Notes: generated by a model from the letters alone, not told the origin. Numbered from the stretch's first letter, positions 793 through 13,470 are shown. The stretch is 14,674 nucleotides of DNA from Thermoproteota archaeon (GCA_049700215.1 JBNAVT010000036.1:1-14674), one strand, 5' to 3'. A program made the numbers and translations.

Positions 793-1614
793 TTAGAAGA
801 GGGATATGCCCCTGGGTAGACTAGCCATCTCACCGTACTGGAAAACCGGGCCGTCTAGACACACATGCTTCCCTCCGAAATGACAGTGCCCGCATTTTCC
901 GATTCCACACCTCATCCTGCTCTCAAGCGAGGCGTAAATATTCTCCTTCGAGTAGCCTAGCTCGACAAGCCTCCTTAAGACGAATCTTATCATGACGGGG
1001 GGGCCGCATGTGCAGACTATTGCCTCAGCCTTGTTGAGCAAAGGCTTTCCAAGTATTGTCGTGACTACCCCAACGCTACCATCCCAGCCCTCCTCCCCCA
1101 CGTCGACAGTCAGGTGGAGCTTCACGCCGCGGCCAGCCCACTCTTCAAACTCATCCCTGTACATGAGTAGTGAGGGCGTTCTCGCACCGTAGCAAACAGC
1201 TATCTCGCCATACTTATCCCTCTCTCCCAGCAGGTGGAGGACGAGGGATCTTAAAGGTGCCAAGCCTATTCCACCCCCCACCATCAGAATATCTCTGCCA
1301 CTCATCTTTTCAACGGGCCAGCCCCGGCCGTAGGGCCCCCTCACGCCAACCTCGTCGCCAACACGGGCTTCGTGAACCATCCTAGTGACGCTACCCATCC
1401 TCCTGATGCTGAACTGCAGATGATCCTTGTCGAAGGGGGAGGAGCATATTGAGAATGGAGCCTCACCCACGCCGTAGACAGTGAGCATCGCGAACTGGCC
1501 TGGCGTGAAGCCTCCGAAATGGTTTGGGCTCAGCGTAACCGTCTTGGTGTCAGGAGCCTCGTCTTTAACCCTGACTATCCTAGCCGGCTTAGGAGCATAA
1601 GGGTTCAGCCCCAT
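793..1614 (-). CDS. flxA: FAD/NAD(P)-binding oxidoreductase with C-terminal [2Fe-2S] cluster (FlxA / AsrB / PyrK-like)
   Basis: PGQF, EAPFSICS, RGPYG, GGGIGLAP, CGPPVM and MRCGIGKCGHC..VCLDGPVF motifs. Start moved from 1674 to the ATG at 1614 (MGLNPY), which has GGAGG at 1625-1629. Confidence 0.9.
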   Translation of the reverse strand: MGLNPYAPKPARIVRVKDEAPDTKTVTLSPNHFGGFTPGQFAMLTVYGVGEAPFSICSSPFDKDHLQFSIRRMGSVTRMVHEARVGDEVGVRGPYGRGWPVEKMSGRDILMVGGGIGLAPLRSLVLHLLGERDKYGEIAVCYGARTPSLLMYRDEFEEWAGRGVKLHLTVDVGEEGWDGSVGVVTTILGKPLLNKAEAIVCTCGPPVMIRFVLRRLVELGYSKENIYASLESRMRCGIGKCGHCHFGGKHVCLDGPVFQYGEMASLPRGISLF

Positions 1615-2627
1615 CTTTTCAAAACCTCCCTTATGTCCACGCCAGTGGGGCAGAGCGAGACGCATCTCCCGCACCCGACGCAGCCGTAGGCGTTGAATGC
1701 GAGCGGGATCCTGCTTAGCTTATGGCAGAACCTGTGGCAGAACCTGTCGACCCTGCTCGCCCTCGGGTCTAGGCCGCTCGCCATCCTTGTGAAGAATGGG
1801 GAGGCACAGGTGTCCCAGCCTTTCGCCCTCACGTAAGCATTCTTCTCTAAATAATCCTCAGTGTCGAAACAGTAGCAGACCGGGCAGACGAATGAGCAGA
1901 GGCTGCACTCCAAACACCTCTGAGCAGCCTGCTGGAAATATTCTTCGCCAAGCTTTTCCTCAAGCTTAACCAGCTGTTCCCCGACTGTTTTAATCCTGCC
2001 CTCCATCTCCCCAGTCAGCCTACGAGACAGTTCTCCATACTCCTCCAAATGCTCAGCACCAGCTTTCTCGAAGAGGCTTCTGAAACCGTTTACTAGAAGC
2101 TTGCCCCTCCCACTCCTCTCCTCAACCAGGAAGCCCCCCGTTATCCGCGTAAGGGTAACATCCTCGCCGGAGCCCCTGACTGGACCCGTTTGGAAAACAT
2201 TGCAGAAACATTCCTCCCCAGGCCTAGCGCAGGAGAGGCTTACGACAGTAGTGCTCATCCTCCTAGACTCGTAGAAGGGGTCTGGGTACGGAGGCTTCAG
2301 CAGAACCTTGTCCAGGACGCTTAAGGCGGAGGCGTCGCACGGCCTGACGGCGAGCAGCACTGTTTCAACGCTTCCCCCAGGCTCCTGGCGGACCCCTGTC
2401 TCAGGATCATGCTTGAAAACCACCTCCCTCTGCGGGATGAAGAAACGCTTCGGGGGCAGCCTCGTATTAGTGTAATCCAGGGAGGCTTCCCTAGCATTTT
2501 TAATGGCTTTGAAGTCGAAGTAGCCGTCTGTCTCAACGGGCGCGATGACTTTTCTACTTGAGACAAGCTCCTCAAGGAGAAGCTTGAAACCGTCTTCACT
2601 TATGAAGAGCATGCTGGCCAGCCTCAA
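1605..2627 (-). CDS. flxB: 4Fe-4S dicluster protein (FlxB / AsrA / sulfhydrogenase beta-like)
   Basis: RPCD, CFC, CLECSLCSFVCPVCYC, WDTC, CVGCGRCVSLCP. TTG start overlaps the upstream TGA (TTGA). Confidence 0.85.
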   Translation of the reverse strand: MRLASMLFISEDGFKLLLEELVSSRKVIAPVETDGYFDFKAIKNAREASLDYTNTRLPPKRFFIPQREVVFKHDPETGVRQEPGGSVETVLLAVRPCDASALSVLDKVLLKPPYPDPFYESRRMSTTVVSLSCARPGEECFCNVFQTGPVRGSGEDVTLTRITGGFLVEERSGRGKLLVNGFRSLFEKAGAEHLEEYGELSRRLTGEMEGRIKTVGEQLVKLEEKLGEEYFQQAAQRCLECSLCSFVCPVCYCFDTEDYLEKNAYVRAKGWDTCASPFFTRMASGLDPRASRVDRFCHRFCHKLSRIPLAFNAYGCVGCGRCVSLCPTGVDIREVLKRWG

Positions 2628-3442
2628 CCACCCTCCTTGAAGACAAGCGCAGGAGGCGCCTCGCCAATCCTGCTCCCTGGAACATAGCCGTAGTTCTCCC
2701 TGAACCAGTGGTTAAGCTCATGGTAAAGCCTTGTCAAAGGGATTTCAACGGGGCAGGCGGATTCGCAAGCGCCGCACTCGACGCAGCGCCCAGCCATGTG
2801 GAGAGCCCTGGTAAGGTGGAACGTGAAAAGCTCCTTGGAATCCCTAAGCCTGTGAACCAGGTCCGGCTTAAAACCTTCTATAGAGCACTCCGTACAGTAG
2901 CAGAGTGGGCATGCTTTAACACACGCTAAGCATTTCAAGCATTTCGCGAACAGGCTCAGCCAGTCTGAAGCATGAGCCGTGGCGCCAGGGGACCCCCCCG
3001 GGGAACTCTGGTCATCGGCCTTCACAAGATAGTCTGCAACAGGCGAAACCCGTGAGACGCATCTCCCACAGTATTCCGCAGGAATGCTCGCGGCGCCGGC
3101 TGAACCGTATTTAACAGGCTTATTGACCCCGGTGCACTCCACAGCTATAACAATAATGTTCTCCCTGTCGACCTGGTTCTCATTCACCAGCTCCACGATG
3201 GATCTTCCGTCGCAACCCTTGGCGACAACCCCAACCCTCCTGCCCCTGAGGCTCCTCAAGTATTTCGCGAGGTTGAACCAGCATTCAGGGTTCCATACGA
3301 GCCTCCCAGCCTCCTCAGGCTTCGAGACGAAGCACGGCCTAACGCTTTTCCCGTAACGCTCATAACCCAAGACCAGCTCGACAACCCTGTTCTCCAAAAG
3401 GCTTCTAGCGATGCTTCTCAAGTCGTCCTCAGCCCTGCTCAA
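2624..3442 (-). CDS. flxC: FdhB/FrhB-like 4Fe-4S protein (FlxC)
   Basis: NLAKYL, KGCDGRSIVEL, CLKCLACVKACPLCYCTEC, HMAGRCVECGACESACP. Position in the operon fits. Confidence 0.85.
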   Translation of the reverse strand: MSRAEDDLRSIARSLLENRVVELVLGYERYGKSVRPCFVSKPEEAGRLVWNPECWFNLAKYLRSLRGRRVGVVAKGCDGRSIVELVNENQVDRENIIVIAVECTGVNKPVKYGSAGAASIPAEYCGRCVSRVSPVADYLVKADDQSSPGGSPGATAHASDWLSLFAKCLKCLACVKACPLCYCTECSIEGFKPDLVHRLRDSKELFTFHLTRALHMAGRCVECGACESACPVEIPLTRLYHELNHWFRENYGYVPGSRIGEAPPALVFKEGG

Positions 3443-3851
3443 CCATCCTCCCCCCTATGTTCAAGGGGCCGAGCCTCTCAACCTCCCCGAGTATTCTTGA
3501 AACCTCTCTGGAGAAGAGGCCTCCCTCGTTAGAAGAGATCCAGAGTATTCTCAGCCTATCCTCCTCAACCCCGATCGTCTTCAAAAGCCTCCTGAGGAGG
3601 CTTACCCTAGCCTCCGTAATCCTGCTCGGCGCAACACTCCTGAGCTCGCTCGGCCTGCAAGCCGTCACCAAGACGGTGTCAGCACCCTTCTCGAAAGCCT
3701 TGACGATCAGGCTCGGGTTGATGATCGCGGAGCAGGGAACCCTGATTGTTAAAAAGTTGGGAGGGTAGGTGAAGCCTTCGAACCCGGCTTGGTCGACACC
3801 GGAGCCTGAACACCAGCATGTGAAAACTATTATCCTAGGCTTCCACGCCAA
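3429..3851 (-). CDS. mvhD: MvhD/FlxD hydrogenase iron-sulfur (delta) subunit, divergent
   Basis: IIVFTCWC..AG...YPPN...IRVPCSA.INP...KAFEKGAD.VLV.AC...GVEEDRLRILWISSNEG..F matches the MvhD/FlpD family. TTG start with GGAGG SD. Confidence 0.88.
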   Translation of the reverse strand: MAWKPRIIVFTCWCSGSGVDQAGFEGFTYPPNFLTIRVPCSAIINPSLIVKAFEKGADTVLVTACRPSELRSVAPSRITEARVSLLRRLLKTIGVEEDRLRILWISSNEGGLFSREVSRILGEVERLGPLNIGGRMVEQG

Positions 3852-3854
3852 AAC

Positions 3855-6800
3855 CTAGTCCTCCAGCATCGCTGAAACCTGGGGGGCGAGCTGCTCCAGA
3901 CCCCAGTTGCCGAGAGTAATCGCTTCCTGGGGGCATGTTGCCAAGCATGCTCCACACCCGTTGCAAACACTCTCTAGAACCCTAACCTTGTCCCCCTCCC
4001 TGACTATGGCGCCGTATTCGCATGAAGACAAGCATCTCCCGCAGCCGGTACACTTCTCCGCAGAGACCTCAGCGGCCTCCGGAAGCCTAAGGCTACTCCT
4101 CCTGAATAGGCTTGTAACCAGCGCGGCTGCGCCACTCCCCTCGACAGCGCTCTCAACAATATCCCTTGGGCCGTGGCATGTGCCGGCGACGAATACTCCC
4201 CTAACCCTTGTTTCAAGCGGCTTCATCTTGGCGTGAGCCTCCTGGATAAACCCGTGCTTATCAACAGTGACGCCGAGCCTCCTGGCGAGCTCAACCATCC
4301 TCCCGGAGGGCTTGAAGCCCAGTGCTAGAACAACCATATCCACCTCCAGCTCGCCCCTCCTGCCTGTTAAAGTATCCTCGTAGACTATCTGAAGATTCCC
4401 GTTTCCAGCCCTCCTTATCTCGGACGGCCTCGACCTTATGAAGACCACACCCTCCTCCAGACACCTCCTGTAGAGAAGATCCTCCCAGCCTTTCCCGAAG
4501 GCCCTCAGCTCGTTGTAGAATATGAAGACCCTGGCCTCCCTGTCGTGCTCAAGGATCAGCCTAGCCTCCTTCATGCTTGCGGCGCAGCAGTAGTATGAGC
4601 ACTCCTCTATGCCTGGTCCAGACTCCCTTGACCCGACGCACTGTATGAAAGCCACCCTCTTAGCAGGCTTCCCATCCCTCCTGAGGAGTACTCCCCCGGT
4701 TGGGCCTGAGGCGCATATTATTCTCTCGAACTCCATGTTTGTTATAACGTTCTCATACTCCCCGTAGTGGTACTCTGGTTTAAGCCTGGGGTTGAAAAGG
4801 TCTGAGCCGACTGCGACAACTATGGCTCCAACGTTCAGCTCAACATTCTTAGGCTCGTCCCCAAGGTTTATCGCTGCCCTGGTGCAAGCCTTCATGCAGA
4901 GCCCGCATTCAACACAGTAATCCATGTTTATCACGTATTTCAATGGTACGGCTTGCGCGAAGGGGCAGTATATTGCTTTAACAGGCTTAAGGTCAGCATC
5001 ATACTTGTTAGGCTGGTAGACGGGGCAGACGTTAACACACTCCCCGCAGCCGTTACACTTGTCAGGATCCACATAAGTAGGGTTAACCCTGACCCTGACC
5101 TTGAAGTCGCCAACCCTACCTTTTACTTCAACAACCTCAGCGTTGGGAATAATAGTAATATTCTTATTCCTGCCTGCTTCAGAGAGGAGTGGACCCTCGA
5201 TACAGTTACTGACCACGAATGCTCCCTTTGGAATAAAACAATGCGTAGGATCCACCGTTATGTCATAGACATAGTCGTCTGTTGAGGGCACTATTCGCAG
5301 TTCCTCAACCCTATCTAAGAAGAATTCTGTTTTGAGAATTCCTTGAAGCTTTATAAAATCAGGGTCATTTCTGACAACGATTCTTTTAACGGCTTTGAGC
5401 ACACGATTCAGGTTTTTAGACGTGATCCTACATTTTTGACGCATAACTCTAATCATGTTTGAGTGAGCAAGTGGAAAAACTCTTAGAGGAATGCGATATC
5501 TTCGTTTAAGATTTGATATCAACCTTCCACATTCCAGAGGCATTTCGTCGAACAATCCGCCGCTTGACTTTCGAAATCTAAGACGTGTGGCGATCCTTCT
5601 TAACCTTAGCGATTTTTCAGGATGGCTGGAACCTACCTTCTTAACAAACCGCAGTACATCCTCGCTGCCCGAAATATCGACTATAACCCTACCTTTGTAT
5701 TCATACACTTTACTTAAAATCCCAAGCCTTTTAAGAAGCAAGTATAACCCGTACCCGTATTCATATTCATCACCGAGTGGGAAACCGATTTTCGCAGCCA
5801 CCCAATTAGGCTTCTCGATTAACACTGCATAACCGTCTCCATCAAAGAAGCCCTTTAAGAATGCTGCAACCAGCTTCTCGTGAAGCCGAAAAACAGGCCT
5901 CAGATCCTCCTTCACCCTCAACTTTTTAGCAAGCTCTGTGAGGATCCTGTTTTTCACCTGAACAACGGTTCTTTTCTTCTGATTTGGACTTTCAGGCTTT
6001 AAGTAGGTAAGGCAGGCAGCTCTGGTTGGAAATATTTCTTTATAGTTCTTCAGAAACAGTTTTATGAGTTGCCTGTTAGTATTATAAAATCTAATTCTTT
6101 CTGCTTCTACACACCCATCGGATGCAACCAACCCAAGAAGATACATTAATTTTTCATTGAGAAACCGGGGCTTAAGACGAATCTTCCCACCAGCTCCTTG
6201 ATACGTAAGTGCACCAACCTTTCTTTTAACTCTATTCCAATCAAAACCCACTGCTTCACAAGCCTTTTTCAGTTCACCTACTGAGAGAAAGTACTCAGTC
6301 CTTTGTAAAACATCATATGGAATGTTCAAGAGTGAGGAAGCGTTCCGCAATGTAGTAAATTTCTCCCTTAACTTATTACGGACTATTCTATTAAGATCGA
6401 TATCAGCAACTTTAAAAGAATCCTCAGGAAGCAGATCAATAATCCATTCTCTTGAGGCTTTAACTTTAAGTTTTCTTGGCGAGTATAGTCTGTCACCTGC
6501 TTTAAGCCGTTCACATTCAATCCAAATAGGACCCCCCGGAGAATCTACTAATATTTTATGATCCCGTGTGAAGCGTAATTTTGCTCCAGTACTGGTTTTA
6601 ACCTCAACCAGCGTTTTTGGAGAAGCTAGTTTTTGAGCGGAGATTATTTTACACTGCTTTAGAGAATGAGAGTTGAAGGAGTATGTTAAAAGCGCATCCC
6701 TATGCGAAGTCCTATTTACATCGGAGAGCTTGCCGACCAGCTCCCTTAAGGTAATGATCGTCCCGTCGTGGAGAATAATCTCAGAGTCACCAGGCATGCA

Positions 6801-7346
6801 TATGGAGCAGTCTAAAGTCGGAAACGTTTTGTCGAGCTGAGCCATCACACCACCTATGCTCGGCTCCTTTTCAACGATGTAGACACGGTAGCCGGCGTCA
6901 GCAATGTCTAGAGCACACCTGACGCCCGCTATGCCTCCCCCTATGACGAGCGCCTCCCTCGTAATCTTCAAACCCTCCACGCCGGGGGGCTGAGACGCGC
7001 GCAGAGCCTTCTGGACACCTCCTTTCACGAGGCGGATTGCCTTTAAAGTCGCCTCCTCCCTGCTTTCGCAAGCCCAGGCGCACTGTTCCCTTATGTTGAC
7101 GAACTCCACTAGACTAGGCTTTCCGAAAACAGCTTCGAGAAGCCTGCTTGAACACGCTGCGACAACAATCCTACCATCATCCCTCAAGCCAAGGTTTTCG
7201 CAAGCGTTTTCCTCGCACAGGCTATCGGTGATTAAAACCCTCCTCACGAGAGGACTGCTGGAAAACACGCTTCTAAGCCTGTCGAAATCAATCTTCTCCA
7301 GCAGGGTTGAGCAGCAGGTGCAGAGCACGACTGTCACACGCCTCAA
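3855..7346 (-). CDS. hdrA: Heterodisulfide reductase subunit A, intein-containing precursor (1163 aa; about 631 aa after splicing)
   Basis: NIREQC, VIGGGIAG FAD motif, QLDKTFPTLDCSI|CI, an inserted ferredoxin domain, MEFER, QCVGSR, CSYYCC..SMK, GVFVAG...GPRDI and a C-terminal 2x[4Fe-4S] domain. Confidence 0.96.
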   Translation of the reverse strand: MRRVTVVLCTCCSTLLEKIDFDRLRSVFSSSPLVRRVLITDSLCEENACENLGLRDDGRIVVAACSSRLLEAVFGKPSLVEFVNIREQCAWACESREEATLKAIRLVKGGVQKALRASQPPGVEGLKITREALVIGGGIAGVRCALDIADAGYRVYIVEKEPSIGGVMAQLDKTFPTLDCSICMPGDSEIILHDGTIITLRELVGKLSDVNRTSHRDALLTYSFNSHSLKQCKIISAQKLASPKTLVEVKTSTGAKLRFTRDHKILVDSPGGPIWIECERLKAGDRLYSPRKLKVKASREWIIDLLPEDSFKVADIDLNRIVRNKLREKFTTLRNASSLLNIPYDVLQRTEYFLSVGELKKACEAVGFDWNRVKRKVGALTYQGAGGKIRLKPRFLNEKLMYLLGLVASDGCVEAERIRFYNTNRQLIKLFLKNYKEIFPTRAACLTYLKPESPNQKKRTVVQVKNRILTELAKKLRVKEDLRPVFRLHEKLVAAFLKGFFDGDGYAVLIEKPNWVAAKIGFPLGDEYEYGYGLYLLLKRLGILSKVYEYKGRVIVDISGSEDVLRFVKKVGSSHPEKSLRLRRIATRLRFRKSSGGLFDEMPLECGRLISNLKRRYRIPLRVFPLAHSNMIRVMRQKCRITSKNLNRVLKAVKRIVVRNDPDFIKLQGILKTEFFLDRVEELRIVPSTDDYVYDITVDPTHCFIPKGAFVVSNCIEGPLLSEAGRNKNITIIPNAEVVEVKGRVGDFKVRVRVNPTYVDPDKCNGCGECVNVCPVYQPNKYDADLKPVKAIYCPFAQAVPLKYVINMDYCVECGLCMKACTRAAINLGDEPKNVELNVGAIVVAVGSDLFNPRLKPEYHYGEYENVITNMEFERIICASGPTGGVLLRRDGKPAKRVAFIQCVGSRESGPGIEECSYYCCAASMKEARLILEHDREARVFIFYNELRAFGKGWEDLLYRRCLEEGVVFIRSRPSEIRRAGNGNLQIVYEDTLTGRRGELEVDMVVLALGFKPSGRMVELARRLGVTVDKHGFIQEAHAKMKPLETRVRGVFVAGTCHGPRDIVESAVEGSGAAALVTSLFRRSSLRLPEAAEVSAEKCTGCGRCLSSCEYGAIVREGDKVRVLESVCNGCGACLATCPQEAITLGNWGLEQLAPQVSAMLED
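5205..6800 (-). mobile_element. Intein (532 aa, residues 183-714) with LAGLIDADG homing endonuclease
   Basis: Block A CMPGDSEI, block B TRDH, LAGLIDADG motifs LLGLVASDG (~6113-6140) and FLKGFFDGDG (~5833-5862), block F YVYDITVDPTHCF, block G VVSN followed by Cys+1. Removing it restores FPTLDCSICIEGP. Markedly AT-richer than the flanks. Confidence 0.96.
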
Positions 7347-8092
7347 CGCTTAACCATCCTCCTGAGCAGGGCCTCCGGGAAGCCTGCCTGCGCCGGGTCT
7401 AAGCCGAGTGAGAAGGCTGAAAGCTGAGCAAGGTGTAGAACAGGAATATTGCTGACAGGGCTTAGGCGAAGCATGCAGTGCGAGCATGTTGCGACAATAC
7501 AGTCGGCCCCAGCCTTCTCCGCCGAGCCAGCCTTCACCCTAGCCATCTCCCCGCCAATGTTCTCACCCGTCAGGAACCCGCCGCAACAGTCGAGCTCACG
7601 CTCATAGGGTACGGGGAGGAACCCGAGCATCTCGAGAACACTTTTAACAATCTTAGGGTCCTCAGGATTATCCAAGCCCCTGCCTGAGGGCCTTAGAAAA
7701 CGGCAGCTGTGCTGGACAGCACACCTTAAACCCGTGAAGCCGAGCCGCGGCTTAACCTCCCTCAGCCTCTCCAGCAGCAAAGCTTGGAAAGGCTTCACTT
7801 CAGGAGGCTTCACACCATTCCTGCCGGCTAAAACCCTGAAGGCATCGCTCAGGCTTGCGAAACAATCGTCGCAAGCGGTGACGACAGTACTGTTGAAAAG
7901 CCTCATGTTCCTCTCGTTAAGCCTGAGCCAAGCCTCCCTGCTAAGGGAGAAAAACCAGGAGGGGGCGCAGCAGGATGCCTCCGTCTTATCCTCGAACGAG
8001 ACACCAAGCCTGCTGAGAGTCTCCTTAACAGCCTTCTCAACCTCGGGGTGAACAGCCCTTATGACGCAGCCAGGGTAAAGGGCTAGGCTCAT
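7343..8092 (-). CDS. hdrB: Heterodisulfide reductase subunit B (two CCG domains)
   Basis: YPGC..ASCCAP..TACDDC and HSCRFLRP..DNPEDP..DCCGG..ATCSHC..IPVLHLAQL. Confidence 0.92.
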   Translation of the reverse strand: MSLALYPGCVIRAVHPEVEKAVKETLSRLGVSFEDKTEASCCAPSWFFSLSREAWLRLNERNMRLFNSTVVTACDDCFASLSDAFRVLAGRNGVKPPEVKPFQALLLERLREVKPRLGFTGLRCAVQHSCRFLRPSGRGLDNPEDPKIVKSVLEMLGFLPVPYERELDCCGGFLTGENIGGEMARVKAGSAEKAGADCIVATCSHCMLRLSPVSNIPVLHLAQLSAFSLGLDPAQAGFPEALLRRMVKR

Positions 8093-8535
8093 TTGAAACC
8101 CGCCTCCGAGAGGATCCTCCTCACCTCTCTTAAACCCTCTGCGCCCAGCCCCGCGTCAGGCAGCCCCAGGAGCCTCCTCCTCTCACGGGACTCCAGGGTG
8201 GGCGGGAAGGCTAAACCGGTTTCCTTAACCTGCTCAACCATCTTAAGGACTTCCTCGGGAGCCTTGCCCCCGTTTTCATAAAGGACTGCTCTCAAAACCA
8301 GGATTATGCTTAAAGGGTCAACACCCTGAGGGCATCTTTCAGAGCAGAGGGAGCAGGTTGAGCAGAGCCACGGGTCCTGGTCCGGAATCCTGTTGAACCT
8401 GGATAAGGAGCCGACTATCCTGCGCGGGTTGAAACCCTCCTGTATGCGGTTCACGGGGCAGGCGGAGGTGCATGAGCCGCACTGCACGCATTTAAGAGGG
8501 TTCCCAGCTTCCTTCTCCCTCAGCGTTTCAATCAA
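8089..8535 (-). CDS. hdrC: Heterodisulfide reductase subunit C
   Basis: CVQCGSCTSACP, FNPRRI, WLCSTCSLCSERCPQGV, RRRLLGLP. Stop overlaps the hdrB ATG (ATGA). Confidence 0.92.
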   Translation of the reverse strand: MIETLREKEAGNPLKCVQCGSCTSACPVNRIQEGFNPRRIVGSLSRFNRIPDQDPWLCSTCSLCSERCPQGVDPLSIILVLRAVLYENGGKAPEEVLKMVEQVKETGLAFPPTLESRERRRLLGLPDAGLGAEGLREVRRILSEAGFK

Positions 8536-8655: not shown

Positions 8656-9788
8656 TCAATACGGCGCGTTGAATATTGTTGCCGCAATATGCCTGACACC
8701 GCCTTCGCAGTCAACAGTGTCGCCAGCCTTGTTGAAATAGTAGACTGCGAGAACCCTTCCATCCGGGAGAAGCACTGTGCGTGGATAACCCAGGTCAGGG
8801 CTGCCCCCGTCGTCGCGCAGAACTATCTCCCTCCCCATGTCTCCCCACCGTCGCCGCTGATCCTGGCACGCACCCCGTAGGGTGGAACCCTGTAGCCGTA
8901 CGTGCAAAGAAGCCTTCCGTCTTTAAGCGTTTGGAGCGCCGCTGGAGCACCCCAATCGTTAACCCTAGATTGGAAACGCCAGGTTAACCCCCCGTCCTCG
9001 GAAACATATGTTTCAGTCCAGTGCAGCCTCCAGTCGGGCCATACTGTTCTAAGGGCAGTGATAATCCTGCCGTCCGGGAGAACAGCAGGGTGGGGACATA
9101 TCTTAGGAGGGTGAGAATCCTCCGGCGTAACATAGCTTAGGAAACACCAGCTGACAGCGCCGTCCGTGCTCGCCAAAACCATTGGCCTCCCCTCGGGAAA
9201 AATTCCGCGCGCAGCCTCGTCGAAACGCTTTCCCTGGACAAACCATAGCAAGACACCGTCTGAGCGAACAATGTACGAGGGCCGGGCTTAAATAGTTTCA
9301 AACACGGGGTTGAAGAGCAGGTGTGGACCCTCCCATGAATAACCCTTGTCACGCGTTACAAAGTATGCTGTCGGGCCAGTCTCGTTTCCAAGAGGGGTTT
9401 CAACAGCTAAAGCTGAACCAGGCTTCGAGAAGTCCACCGGCCTCGGCTTAGGTAAGGGGCTATCAGACGGAGGATAGTGAAGAACCTTCGCGCGCAGCTC
9501 AGCCTTGCTCTCCACGATCACTCTAAGGCCTTCAACAGGCCAGGTGCGGCCACCATCCTTTGAACGAAGCGTGACAAGCTGGCCGGCTCCCAGCTGAACC
9601 CTACTGTGCTCAACATCCCTGGGAGACACGTATGCGCACTTGTTACGGTTGAAGCCTACGAGTATCTCGCCCTCTCCGAAGCTTCATAGCCCCCCGTTGA
9701 AAGGCCACCCAGCATACTCGTCACCCCTATGGTAGACAGTCACGTGTTCAGCATCCTCCAGCCTAACCGGGTTCCTACGGCTAGCCAT
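8656..9788 (-). pseudogene. BNR/Asp-box (exo-alpha-sialidase-like) beta-propeller protein, disrupted
   Basis: ATG 9788 MASRRNPVRLEDAEHVTVYH..AGWPFNGGL*SFGEGEILVGF. In-frame TGA at 9684-9686, in-frame TAA at 9288-9290 and a 1-nt frameshift at the G-run 8833-8836. Five Asp-boxes: SKDGGRTW, TRDKGYSW, STDGAVSW, SEDGGLTW, SGDGGETW. Ends DLGYP..VLLPDG..LAVYY. Confidence 0.85.
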
Positions 9789-11187: not shown

Positions 11188-12393
11188 ATGGGGCCTGGCC
11201 CACTGGCGAGAAGGCTCGTCGACAAGATTTTTTCCGAGGAAAGGGTTGTAGCTGGGCTCATGTCTGGAACAAGCGCTGACGGTGTTGACATAGTGATCGT
11301 AAAGATAAGGGGCTTCGGAAGAGATGTTAAGTATGAGGTTCTCCACAAGGATACTGTCCCATACCCCGGCGAGTTAAAGAGATACATACTGGATTCTGTT
11401 GAACAAGGCTCCGTCAGAGACGTATGCCTCTTGAACCACCTTGTTTCTGAAGCATTCTCCGACGCGTTGAAGAACTCTCTAGGGGCATCGAGGATTTCCC
11501 TGAACGATATTGACCTAGTAGGGTCGCACGGTCAGACACTGCATCATTTTCCAGAATACGTTTCCGTAGGAGGCTTTTCAAGCAGGTGTTCCCTACAACT
11601 CGGCTCTGTTCAAGTCATAGCTGAGAGAACCGGTTTAACAACCATCGGAAACTTCAGGGCTAGAGATATTGCTGCCGGCGGACAGGGAGCCCCCATAATA
11701 GCCTACGTGGATTACTCTCTCCTCTCAGACCCCGTGAAGGGGAGGCTTGTTCAGAACATAGGAGGCATAGCCAACGTAACAGTTCTCCCGAGAAACCCTG
11801 AAACCAAGGATGTCTACGCTTTCGACACGGGACCTGGGAACAGCCTGATAGACTTTACGGTTGGAATGCTCTACCCGGAGCTGCCTCACGACCCTGGTGG
11901 CGAGATTGCTTCAAAAGGATCCTGCGACGAAGAAATTTTAAGAGGGCTTATGGCTCACGAGTATATCACTAGACCTCCTCCTAAAACAACCGGGAGAGAG
12001 GTTTTCAGCAGGTCTTTCGCAAAGAGGATTATTGAGAAGGGGCTTGGCAAAGGCTTGTCTAAGGAGGACCTGGTTGCCACCGTGACGATGTTCACGGTGA
12101 AGAGCATCGTTAAAAACTACGACCTCTTCATACTGCCTAAAACCAGGGTTGAAGAGGTTATCGTTGGGGGAGGAGGAGTCAGGAACAAGACTCTCATGAA
12201 GCATTTCGAGGAGGAATTGAGAAGGAGAGGCCTAAGAATGCTTAAACACGAGGATGTGGGGATCGACTCGAAGGTTAAGGAGGCTCTCGGAATGGCTATA
12301 CTGGCCCACGCGACTTTAAGCGGGGTTCCTAACAATATACCTGGGGCTACGGGAGCGGAGAGGAGCGTCGTCATGGGGGAGATAGCGCTATAG
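11188..12393 (+). CDS. anmK: Anhydro-N-acetylmuramic acid kinase
   Basis: GLMSGTSADGVD, GSHGQT, FRARDIAAGGQGAP, NIGGIAN, FDTGPGN, PPKTTGRE, GGGGVRN, KEA, GATGA. Confidence 0.95.
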   Translation: MGPGPLARRLVDKIFSEERVVAGLMSGTSADGVDIVIVKIRGFGRDVKYEVLHKDTVPYPGELKRYILDSVEQGSVRDVCLLNHLVSEAFSDALKNSLGASRISLNDIDLVGSHGQTLHHFPEYVSVGGFSSRCSLQLGSVQVIAERTGLTTIGNFRARDIAAGGQGAPIIAYVDYSLLSDPVKGRLVQNIGGIANVTVLPRNPETKDVYAFDTGPGNSLIDFTVGMLYPELPHDPGGEIASKGSCDEEILRGLMAHEYITRPPPKTTGREVFSRSFAKRIIEKGLGKGLSKEDLVATVTMFTVKSIVKNYDLFILPKTRVEEVIVGGGGVRNKTLMKHFEEELRRRGLRMLKHEDVGIDSKVKEALGMAILAHATLSGVPNNIPGATGAERSVVMGEIAL

Positions 12394-13470
12394 GGAGGAT
12401 ACTAGCAGGTTGTGGAAAACTGGTCTAAACCTCATTATCTTGGTGTTCCCCCTGCTTGGGTGAACCCTGTTGCTTAAGAGGACGGCGACAACCCTCTGCC
12501 CAGCATCTATGCATATCGAGGTGCCTGTGAAACCCGTGTGGCAGAAAGCATCTCCATCCGTAAACAGGTCGCCGAAAGCCTGTGAAACCGTCTTCCTGTA
12601 AACCTGCCACCCCAGCCCGTAGCAGTAATCGCCATCCGCCCAGGGCCTAAGCATCGTCGCCGCGGTAGCCTTTTTAACGAGACGGTCACTCCTGCCTAAA
12701 TATGCTTGCAGCATCTCGTTCCCTATTAACGCCACCTCCCTTGCTGTTGAAAACAATCCCGCGTGGCCCGAAAGGCCTTCCAGCGCCCTTGCATTCTCAT
12801 CGTGGACAACCCCCCTCAGGGGGAAACCGGTTCCAGGATCGATCTCCGTCGACGCAACCTGGTTTTCGGCGAAACCATGGTTCAAAGGATTGTAAACAGT
12901 CTTCCTCAAGCCCAGAGGCCTTGCGACAAGCTTCTCGAAAAGACTGTCGATCCTTTCACCAGTAATGCTTTCCACCAGCGCGGTGAGAACAATGTAGCCG
13001 ATGTCGCTGTAGATAACCCTCGACCCGGGTGGAAGGCTGACGAAGGATCTCGCAGCCTCCTCGAAGAGCCCAACCCTGCTTTTCTCCCCAAGCTTGTAAA
13101 GCGGAGCCCAAGCTGGGAGACCGGCTGAATGGGAGAGCAGCATCCATATTTCAGTCCTACTTTTAAACTCATCCTGCCCCGCGTTAGTCTCAGAATACTC
13201 AGGCAACACTTCTGAAACCCTCTGCTTCAAATGCAGGAGACCCTCTTCCAGAAGCCTTGCGACGATGATCGACGTTGCGAGAGGCTTAGTGAGGGAGGCA
13301 AGATCGTAAAGCGTCTCCACCGATGCTTCTCTCCTCTCCGGGGTCGCTTCAGCGTATCCGAAAGCCTCCTCGTAGACGAGATCATCATCCAGATAAACAG
13401 CTACTGAAGCCCCTGGGAAAACGTCTTCGACAGCATTAGCGAGAGCCATCCTCAGATTGTTAAACTTCAT
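12388..13470 (-). CDS. Serine hydrolase, beta-lactamase/class C family (AmiE/YbbE-like candidate)
   Basis: YDLASLTK (SxxK), LLSHSAGL, YSDIGY, GVVHDENA...GLSGHAGLFS, HTGFTGTS, LSNRVHP. No obvious signal peptide. Confidence 0.9.
   Translation of the reverse strand: MKFNNLRMALANAVEDVFPGASVAVYLDDDLVYEEAFGYAEATPERREASVETLYDLASLTKPLATSIIVARLLEEGLLHLKQRVSEVLPEYSETNAGQDEFKSRTEIWMLLSHSAGLPAWAPLYKLGEKSRVGLFEEAARSFVSLPPGSRVIYSDIGYIVLTALVESITGERIDSLFEKLVARPLGLRKTVYNPLNHGFAENQVASTEIDPGTGFPLRGVVHDENARALEGLSGHAGLFSTAREVALIGNEMLQAYLGRSDRLVKKATAATMLRPWADGDYCYGLGWQVYRKTVSQAFGDLFTDGDAFCHTGFTGTSICIDAGQRVVAVLLSNRVHPSRGNTKIMRFRPVFHNLLVSSL

Follow-up and report, generated by a model that had tools for sequence, protein, structure and literature searches.

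In a Thermoproteota archaeon, the gene for a protein resembling subunit A of heterodisulfide reductase (HdrA; Hdr for the whole enzyme) is interrupted by an intein within its D-C-x-x-C motif. The gene lies on 14,674 nucleotides of DNA (GCA_049700215.1 JBNAVT010000036.1:1-14674), here called the window and numbered from its first letter. The element, a mobile class 1 intein whose LAGLIDADG homing endonuclease is intact, appears to have homed into this motif, directly before its second cysteine, and the first intein residue (Cys1) now stands three residues past an extein cysteine (Cys-3). The pair is probably an incidental trap left by a selfish element whose target is a conserved cofactor motif; it is less likely to have evolved as a regulator of Hdr. 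The earlier note on this DNA had proposed such a regulator, in which a disulfide between Cys180 and Cys183 would act as a physiological switch responsive to oxygen or redox state, leaving HdrA unspliced when oxidised or under high disulfide load and letting Hdr mature once thiols are reduced, protecting or gating an oxygen-labile enzyme. The intein, the spacing of its Cys1 from the extein cysteine and the iron-sulfur (Fe-S) ligand site were found as described there; several of the results given below run contrary to the evolved switch, which is unlikely.

On the reverse complement of window positions 6812..6795, the codons GAC TGC TCC ATA TGC ATG read D-C-S-I-C-M. DCSIC comprises residues 179-183 of the 1163-residue open reading frame (ORF) at 3855..7346(-), and C-S-I-C (residues 180-183) corresponds exactly to 6798..6809. 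Extein Cys180 at -3 and intein Cys183 at position 1 are the sequence signature of a redox-trap intein of the Pyrococcus abyssi MoaA type. The claim that Cys1 replaces the second cysteine of the host, and so rebuilds a CxxC in the precursor, is borne out by alignment with the methanogen HdrA of PDB entry 5odc (chain A), in which Cys180 corresponds to Cys194 while Cys183, in the N-side stretch, and Cys715, in the C-side stretch, both correspond to Cys197. This chain was the best PDB match of the exteins (E 2.4e-148), with one aligned stretch on each side of the intein, which identifies the host as a member of the HdrA family. Because a Cys1 intein placed just before the second cysteine of a host CxxC creates the Cys-3/Cys1 arrangement automatically, chance is the wrong null hypothesis for C-x-x-C1; the arrangement follows from the insertion site.

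The host motif is widespread. Cys197, in the thioredoxin-reductase domain of HdrA, is a ligand donated to the N-terminal Fe-S cluster of the partner protomer (PMC9012536), and from the matching number and domain we infer that it is identical with Cys197 of 5odc_A. The available part of the same paper yielded no role for Cys194, the equivalent of Cys-3, in mature HdrA. Among the 150 best representatives of the HdrA family at 50% identity, surveyed with the N-extein as probe and, being cluster representatives, not independent samples, 128 have CxxC at the junction position. No intein is present in 126 of these; only two database proteins, P0006 and P0017, carry one. The remaining representatives have neither cysteine (9), the first only (3) or the second only (2), or were unmatched by the N-extein probe (8). 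With both cysteines in 128, neither in nine and a single one in five, the two junction positions co-vary.

To judge from these and the following comparisons, the CxxC1 of the precursor is the host motif joined to a clade-wide Cys1, and is inherited and not acquired. DCSIC, the sequence of the spliced product, is found in every one of 15 intein-free HdrAs that were checked, comprising P0083 and 14 among the 24 closest. Since Ser-Ile at -2/-1 is likewise found in them, the intein-bearing alleles have no specific adaptation of the flank, and the unchanged Cys-3, -2 and -1 residues argue against the switch. On the intein side, 81 matches were obtained, of which the 63 aligned from intein residue 1 were counted and rows with truncated or shifted N-termini were excluded. 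Cys1 is present in 63 of 63, whatever the host (V-ATPase B-type, Cbf5/TruB, NuoB-like, a thiamine pyrophosphate enzyme or HdrA), which again counts against a residue selected for redox control of Hdr. Cys-3 is present in 23 of the 63, solely where the host motif provides a cysteine: 18 are HdrA, three are of the acetyl-CoA-synthase type (SCTL/C, the slash marking the splice junction) and two of the [NiFe]-hydrogenase large-subunit type (RICGI/C).

Clade members in other hosts likewise sit on cysteines of metal-binding motifs. Inteins at the [NiFe]-hydrogenase large-subunit type (P0023 and P0036) read RICGI/C...N/CSVAH and those at the acetyl-CoA synthase type (P0022, P0055 and P0069) read SCTL/C, a Cys-3/Cys1 pair being created at both; those in NuoB-like hosts (P0030 and P0033) read TGS/C...N/CNGC.

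The intein behaves as a selfish mobile element, exchanged horizontally and polymorphic in presence and absence among near-identical hosts. The intein-free HdrA P0231 is identical to the window exteins at 176/182 and 443/449 residues (98%). Its 631 residues equal 1163 minus the 532 of the intein, and it is collinear with the window exteins and reads DCSI-C at the junction, as fits an exact in-frame insertion. The best 24 C-extein matches (P0231-P0254) are all intein-free, 612-639 residues long and 80-99% identical in the C-extein. A syntenic locus, L003, belongs to an uncultured Nitrososphaerota metagenome-assembled genome (MAG). Its DNA matches the window at 94-96% of positions across hdrC, hdrB, both exteins and mvhD, the exteins themselves at 95-96%, but at only 78.9% (1262/1599) over the intein. 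When counted by bins of 150 bases, identity is 0.90-0.92 in the two splice-junction bins and 0.75-0.82 within the intein.

Between the window and L003, the synonymous divergence (dS, Nei-Gojobori) is 0.17 and 0.15 in the exteins versus 0.83 in the intein, and the ratio of nonsynonymous to synonymous divergence (dN/dS) is 0.10 and 0.04 in the exteins, 0.16 in the intein and 0.18 in its endonuclease part. Faster neutral drift as the source of the intein divergence was rejected, dS itself being about five-fold higher and dN/dS low. High dS with low dN/dS points to an older split of two intein lineages, both under purifying selection. Identity matrices of inteins and C-exteins are also incongruent. 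For P0001 and P0006, identity is 99% in the host C-extein and 75% in the intein. The P0006 intein shares 87-90% of its residues with the inteins of P0003 and P0005, for which host identity is 84% and 92%. With alleles that are empty, invaded or invaded anew, a single host group shows the pattern of a homing cycle. Both the 98%-identical host that lacks the intein and the horizontal exchange weigh against a physiological switch.

The residue at +2, Ile716 (window 5199-5201), may be mentioned here. It is Ile in all 20 aligned intein-bearing HdrAs, the window included (CIEG, CIEA or CILT), and among the 24 closest intein-free representatives, which are not independent, it is Ile in 13 and Val in 11, the 98%-identical empty P0231 having Val. 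The Ile/Val difference may be a marker of the homing site or of co-conversion.

Assignment of the intein to class 1 rests on the Cys183 nucleophile, the TxxH of block B and Asn714/Cys715. Pfam Intein_splicing matches residues 190-710, NCBIfam intein_Nterm residues 183-267, and Pfam LAGLIDADG_3 two stretches (E 3.5e-15). Invariant in a 53-sequence alignment of the clade are Cys1, Thr260, His263, Asn714 and Cys+1; Asp695, His702 and Ser713, the penultimate residue, are conserved at 90% or above. An AlphaFold2 model of residues 170-730 (predicted local distance difference test, pLDDT, 91; predicted template modelling score 0.91) has a Hint fold by Foldseek, with TliVMA (7qss), PI-TkoII (2cw7) and PI-PfuI (1dq3) as best PDB matches (E 1e-20 to 1e-17) and further matches to I-DmoI and PI-SceI. 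A phmmer search of PDB sequences with the intein gave 0 matches at E<=0.001. Two motifs with acidic residues and an endonuclease fold mark the element as a LAGLIDADG homing endonuclease intein. In two HdrA relatives, P0010 and P0024, the intein is about 75 residues shorter (456 and 458 versus 521-532) with intact junctions; part of the endonuclease domain may have been lost.

As the conserved residues suggest, splicing would begin with attack of Cys183 on the carbonyl of Ile182, after which the acyl group would be transferred to Cys715, Asn714 would cyclise, and an Ile182-Cys715 peptide bond would form to regenerate DCSIC. The unspliced precursor would be inactive until spliced, because the cluster-ligand loop is interrupted and Cys715 corresponds to the ligand of the N-terminal [4Fe-4S] cluster of the partner protomer. 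A Cys180-Cys183 disulfide would block the N-S acyl shift, by precedent of the P. abyssi MoaA intein. By that analogy the trap is chemically plausible, and in our own judgement there is an even chance that some Cys-3-dependent redox sensitivity would be seen in vitro.

What favours the physiological switch, beyond the Cys-3/Cys1 arrangement confirmed in the sequence, is precedent and conservation. Both precedents claimed for it hold in the literature: the Cys-3/Cys1 disulfide controls activity of the native P. abyssi MoaA intein, beside which stands the engineered trap in Ssp DnaE (reviewed in PMC10663303 and PMC3922620), and the SufB intein of Mycobacterium tuberculosis is oxidation-sensitive (PMC6195587). 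What the intein interrupts is a motif for Fe-S ligands in a flavoenzyme with several clusters. The insertion site and Cys-3, Cys1 and Cys+1 are kept in all 19 HdrA relatives with a readable N-junction, and the splicing domain is under purifying selection. (The HdrA intein alignment consists of the window and 18 relatives; P0015 lies outside it and starts MDCSI/C.) Set against this, in addition to the inherited cysteines, the empty allele and the horizontal exchange, cysteine-based redox inhibition is not universal in class 1 inteins (PMC6195587), and the heterodisulfide of coenzymes M and B (CoM-S-S-CoB), listed in the earlier note beside H2O2 and diamide, is unlikely to be relevant.

Several points nevertheless weigh against the incidental trap. 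The clade recurs at CxxC metal motifs of three metalloenzymes, which is possibly more than target conservation would give. The MoaA precedent has the same geometry, and the authors of the review PMC10663303 think it more than coincidence. A sporadic distribution is compatible with a benefit in some niches, a by-product may still be exploited by its host, and a physiological redox effect is compatible with the present results, which are based on sequences and models. Residues 1-11 of the AlphaFold2 model have pLDDT <50 and place Cys-3 unreliably, and the family counts share the non-independence of cluster representatives already mentioned. Taken further, the recurrence of one ...SN/C LAGLIDADG clade on the second cysteine of CxxC motifs (DCSI/C in HdrA, RICGI/C in [NiFe]-hydrogenase, SCTL/C in acetyl-CoA synthase) could be a general checkpoint by which redox state or metal supply gates the maturation of oxygen-sensitive enzymes of anaerobic energy metabolism in archaea exposed to oxygen; this is quite unlikely.

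Under cysteine chemistry of another kind, maturation would depend on the supply of metal or clusters, or on thiol oxidation in general, and Cys-3 would have no particular part. The chemistry would be either a Cys1-Cys+1 disulfide, or metal or Fe-S binding by Cys180, Cys183 and Cys715, possibly with Cys703. Both catalytic nucleophiles are invariant cysteines, a Cys1/Cys+1 disulfide prevents splicing in the Pab PolII intein (PMC3922620), the insertion site is a metal-ligand motif, and Cys703 lies beside the block F His in 12 of the 19 aligned HdrA inteins. This account is purely inferential, however, and Cys703 is not conserved, being N or R in the other seven; it is very unlikely. Most improbable, and rejected, is a decaying or splicing-defective intein in what is effectively a pseudogene: another gene close by is disrupted, and Ser713 occupies the penultimate position where many inteins have His, but the ORF is intact, dN/dS is 0.16 in the intein and 0.04-0.10 in the exteins, and the remaining catalytic residues are all present. 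Penultimate His is common among inteins and not universal. Ser-Asn-Cys is shared by 90% or more of the 53 sequences of the clade, across hosts of the V-ATPase B-type (PF02874/PF00006), the Cbf5/TruB type and others, and Ser713 in all 19 aligned HdrA-type sequences; such conservation throughout the clade makes the serine a clade trait and not a lesion. The incidental trap is the preferred account of the locus, the features of which are collected below.

Table. Features of the intein-bearing hdrA-like gene and its operon, in window coordinates.
Feature	Position	Strand	Details
hdrC-like gene	8089..8535	(-)	4Fe-4S dicluster
hdrB-like gene	7343..8092	(-)	CCG domains; stop overlaps hdrA start
hdrA-like precursor ORF	3855..7346	(-)	1163 amino acids; TTG start
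N-extein	6801..7346	(-)	residues 1-182; ends ...FPTLDCSI
C-S-I-C at N-terminal junction	6798..6809	(-)	Cys180 (Cys-3, 6807-6809), Ser181, Ile182 (-1), Cys183 (intein Cys1, 6798-6800)
Intein	5205..6800	(-)	residues 183-714, 532 amino acids; class 1 splicing domain with nested LAGLIDADG homing endonuclease
Splicing block B	6546..6572	(-)	FTRDHKILV; T260-R-D-H263, Thr260 and His263 invariant among 53 clade members
LAGLIDADG motif 1	6114..6140	(-)	LLGLVASDG, residues 403-411
LAGLIDADG motif 2	5832..5861	(-)	FLKGFFDGDG, residues 496-505
Splicing block F	5232..5270	(-)	VYDITVDPTHCFI; Asp695 and His702 conserved
Block G and C-terminal junction	5202..5222	(-)	AFVVSN/C; Ser713 penultimate (5208-5210), Asn714, Cys715 (Cys+1, 5202-5204)
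C-extein	3858..5204	(-)	residues 715-1163; starts CIEGPLLSE; Cys715 aligned to Cys197 of PDB 5odc_A
mvhD/FlpD-like gene	3429-3851	(-)	
Fe-S protein gene	2624-3442	(-)	
Sulfhydrogenase-beta/AsrA-like gene	1605-2627	(-)	
Sulfhydrogenase-gamma/AsrB-like gene	793-1674	(-)	FAD/NAD(P)-binding

The precursor consists of an N-terminal Fe-S domain, a flavin adenine dinucleotide (FAD)/thioredoxin-reductase-like domain that the intein interrupts, and two ferredoxin domains; in the database copy, P0002, the start is placed three codons later. Its scores of 626, 490 and 448 bits fall below the curated NCBIfam equivalog cut-offs for CoB-CoM HdrA (1100, 1300 and 1400), and the presence of the intein lowers them. 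The HdrB and HdrC neighbours are also under their curated equivalog cut-offs. In the operon, all on the minus strand, the hdrC-like gene is followed by the hdrB-like gene, hdrA with its intein, and a module at 793..3851 made up of the mvhD-like, Fe-S protein and sulfhydrogenase beta/gamma-like genes. The window yielded no hydrogenase gene. Named relatives come from MAGs of Nitrososphaerota, Thermoproteota, 'Thaumarchaeota', Caldarchaeum, Bathyarchaeia and Hermodarchaeota. From the sub-cut-off Hdr scores, these relatives and the downstream module, the complex would be a module of the Hdr type linked to NAD(P)H, in an organism that is not a methanogen. The same evidence leaves CoM-S-S-CoB unsupported as an effector. 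The description of the host as a thiol/disulfide enzyme needs correction: HdrA is the flavin and Fe-S subunit, and the CCG-domain protein of the HdrB type is encoded by the adjacent gene. The disulfide-reducing site presumably lies on HdrB, not on HdrA.

Three genes of the window outside the operon were also noted. A BNR/Asp-box repeat gene (8659-9788 (-)) is disrupted relative to an intact 378-residue ORF of L003 (3554-4690), the frame changing near 8832-8835 and being interrupted by a stop codon at 9288-9290, and is either a pseudogene or the product of an assembly error. A gene for anhydro-N-acetylmuramic acid kinase (11188-12393 (+)) scores 438.8 against an NCBIfam cut-off of 387 and adjoins a gene of the PBP4B/beta-lactamase family (12388-13470 (-)). 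The contig that holds both has archaeal MAGs as its relatives. By size, L003 has counterparts of these peptidoglycan-type genes: an ORF of 401 residues on the corresponding strand and, next to it, one truncated where the locus ends. Peptidoglycan-recycling-type genes in an archaeon possibly reflect scavenging of bacterial cell wall.

A literature search for an HdrA intein found no paper describing one. PMC3087415 was considered as such a report and rejected, the intein in the available part of that paper belonging to ribonucleotide reductase. The relative P0010 is labelled 'heterodisulfide reductase subunit A-like polyferredoxin/intein/homing endonuclease' in the database. The locus is a further example of an intein that naturally pairs Cys-3 with Cys1 in the motif of a metalloenzyme. 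On present evidence it mainly exemplifies the usual tendency of inteins to home into those cofactor-binding motifs that are most conserved, and the redox reading is an extrapolation. If the trap works, it would join MoaA as the second natural example of an intein that restrains an oxygen-labile Fe-S enzyme for as long as the cell is not reduced, and would be the first in an electron-bifurcating complex of the Hdr type. Near-identical alleles with and without the intein, and two diverged variants of it in hosts that are 98% identical, supply a natural control. This combination of one empty allele and two intein variants makes the hypothesis cheaply and cleanly testable, which is the main value of the locus.

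Among known systems, the MoaA intein of P. abyssi is likewise archaeal, belongs to class 1 and combines Cys1 with an N-extein Cys-3 in an oxygen-sensitive metalloenzyme; a disulfide would block the first splicing step. The insertion site in MoaA is itself said to be an Fe-S motif. The two differ in host, and the redox dependence has been shown for MoaA, whereas the HdrA intein is known from its sequence. The CPGC trap of Ssp DnaE shares the C-x-x-C1 at the N-terminal junction; it was engineered, whereas the HdrA junction is natural and has Ser-Ile between the cysteines. In Pab PolII (Cys1-Cys+1 disulfide), Mtu SufB and Msm DnaBi1 the catalytic cysteines are redox-sensitive too, and the host of Mtu SufB is also Fe-S-related; the disulfide partners and hosts of the three are different from those considered here.

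TliVMA, PI-TkoII and PI-PfuI have the same combination of a Hint domain and a LAGLIDADG endonuclease, with template modelling scores up to 0.75 on the target. Their sequence identity is 14-17%, and the HdrA intein is set apart by its penultimate Ser. From the HdrA of the methanogen HdrABC-MvhAGD complex (PDB 5odc, 8rvu and 7bkb) the window protein differs in its score (626 versus the cut-off of 1100) and in its closest relatives, which are Nitrososphaerota and Thermoproteota MAGs. The complexes also differ in that the downstream module of the window is sulfhydrogenase beta/gamma-like and of the NAD(P)H type, with no hydrogenase gene alongside. The likeness is seen in exteins that align over both halves, in DCSIC as the counterpart of Cys194/Cys197, and in the hdrB-, hdrC- and mvhD-like neighbours.

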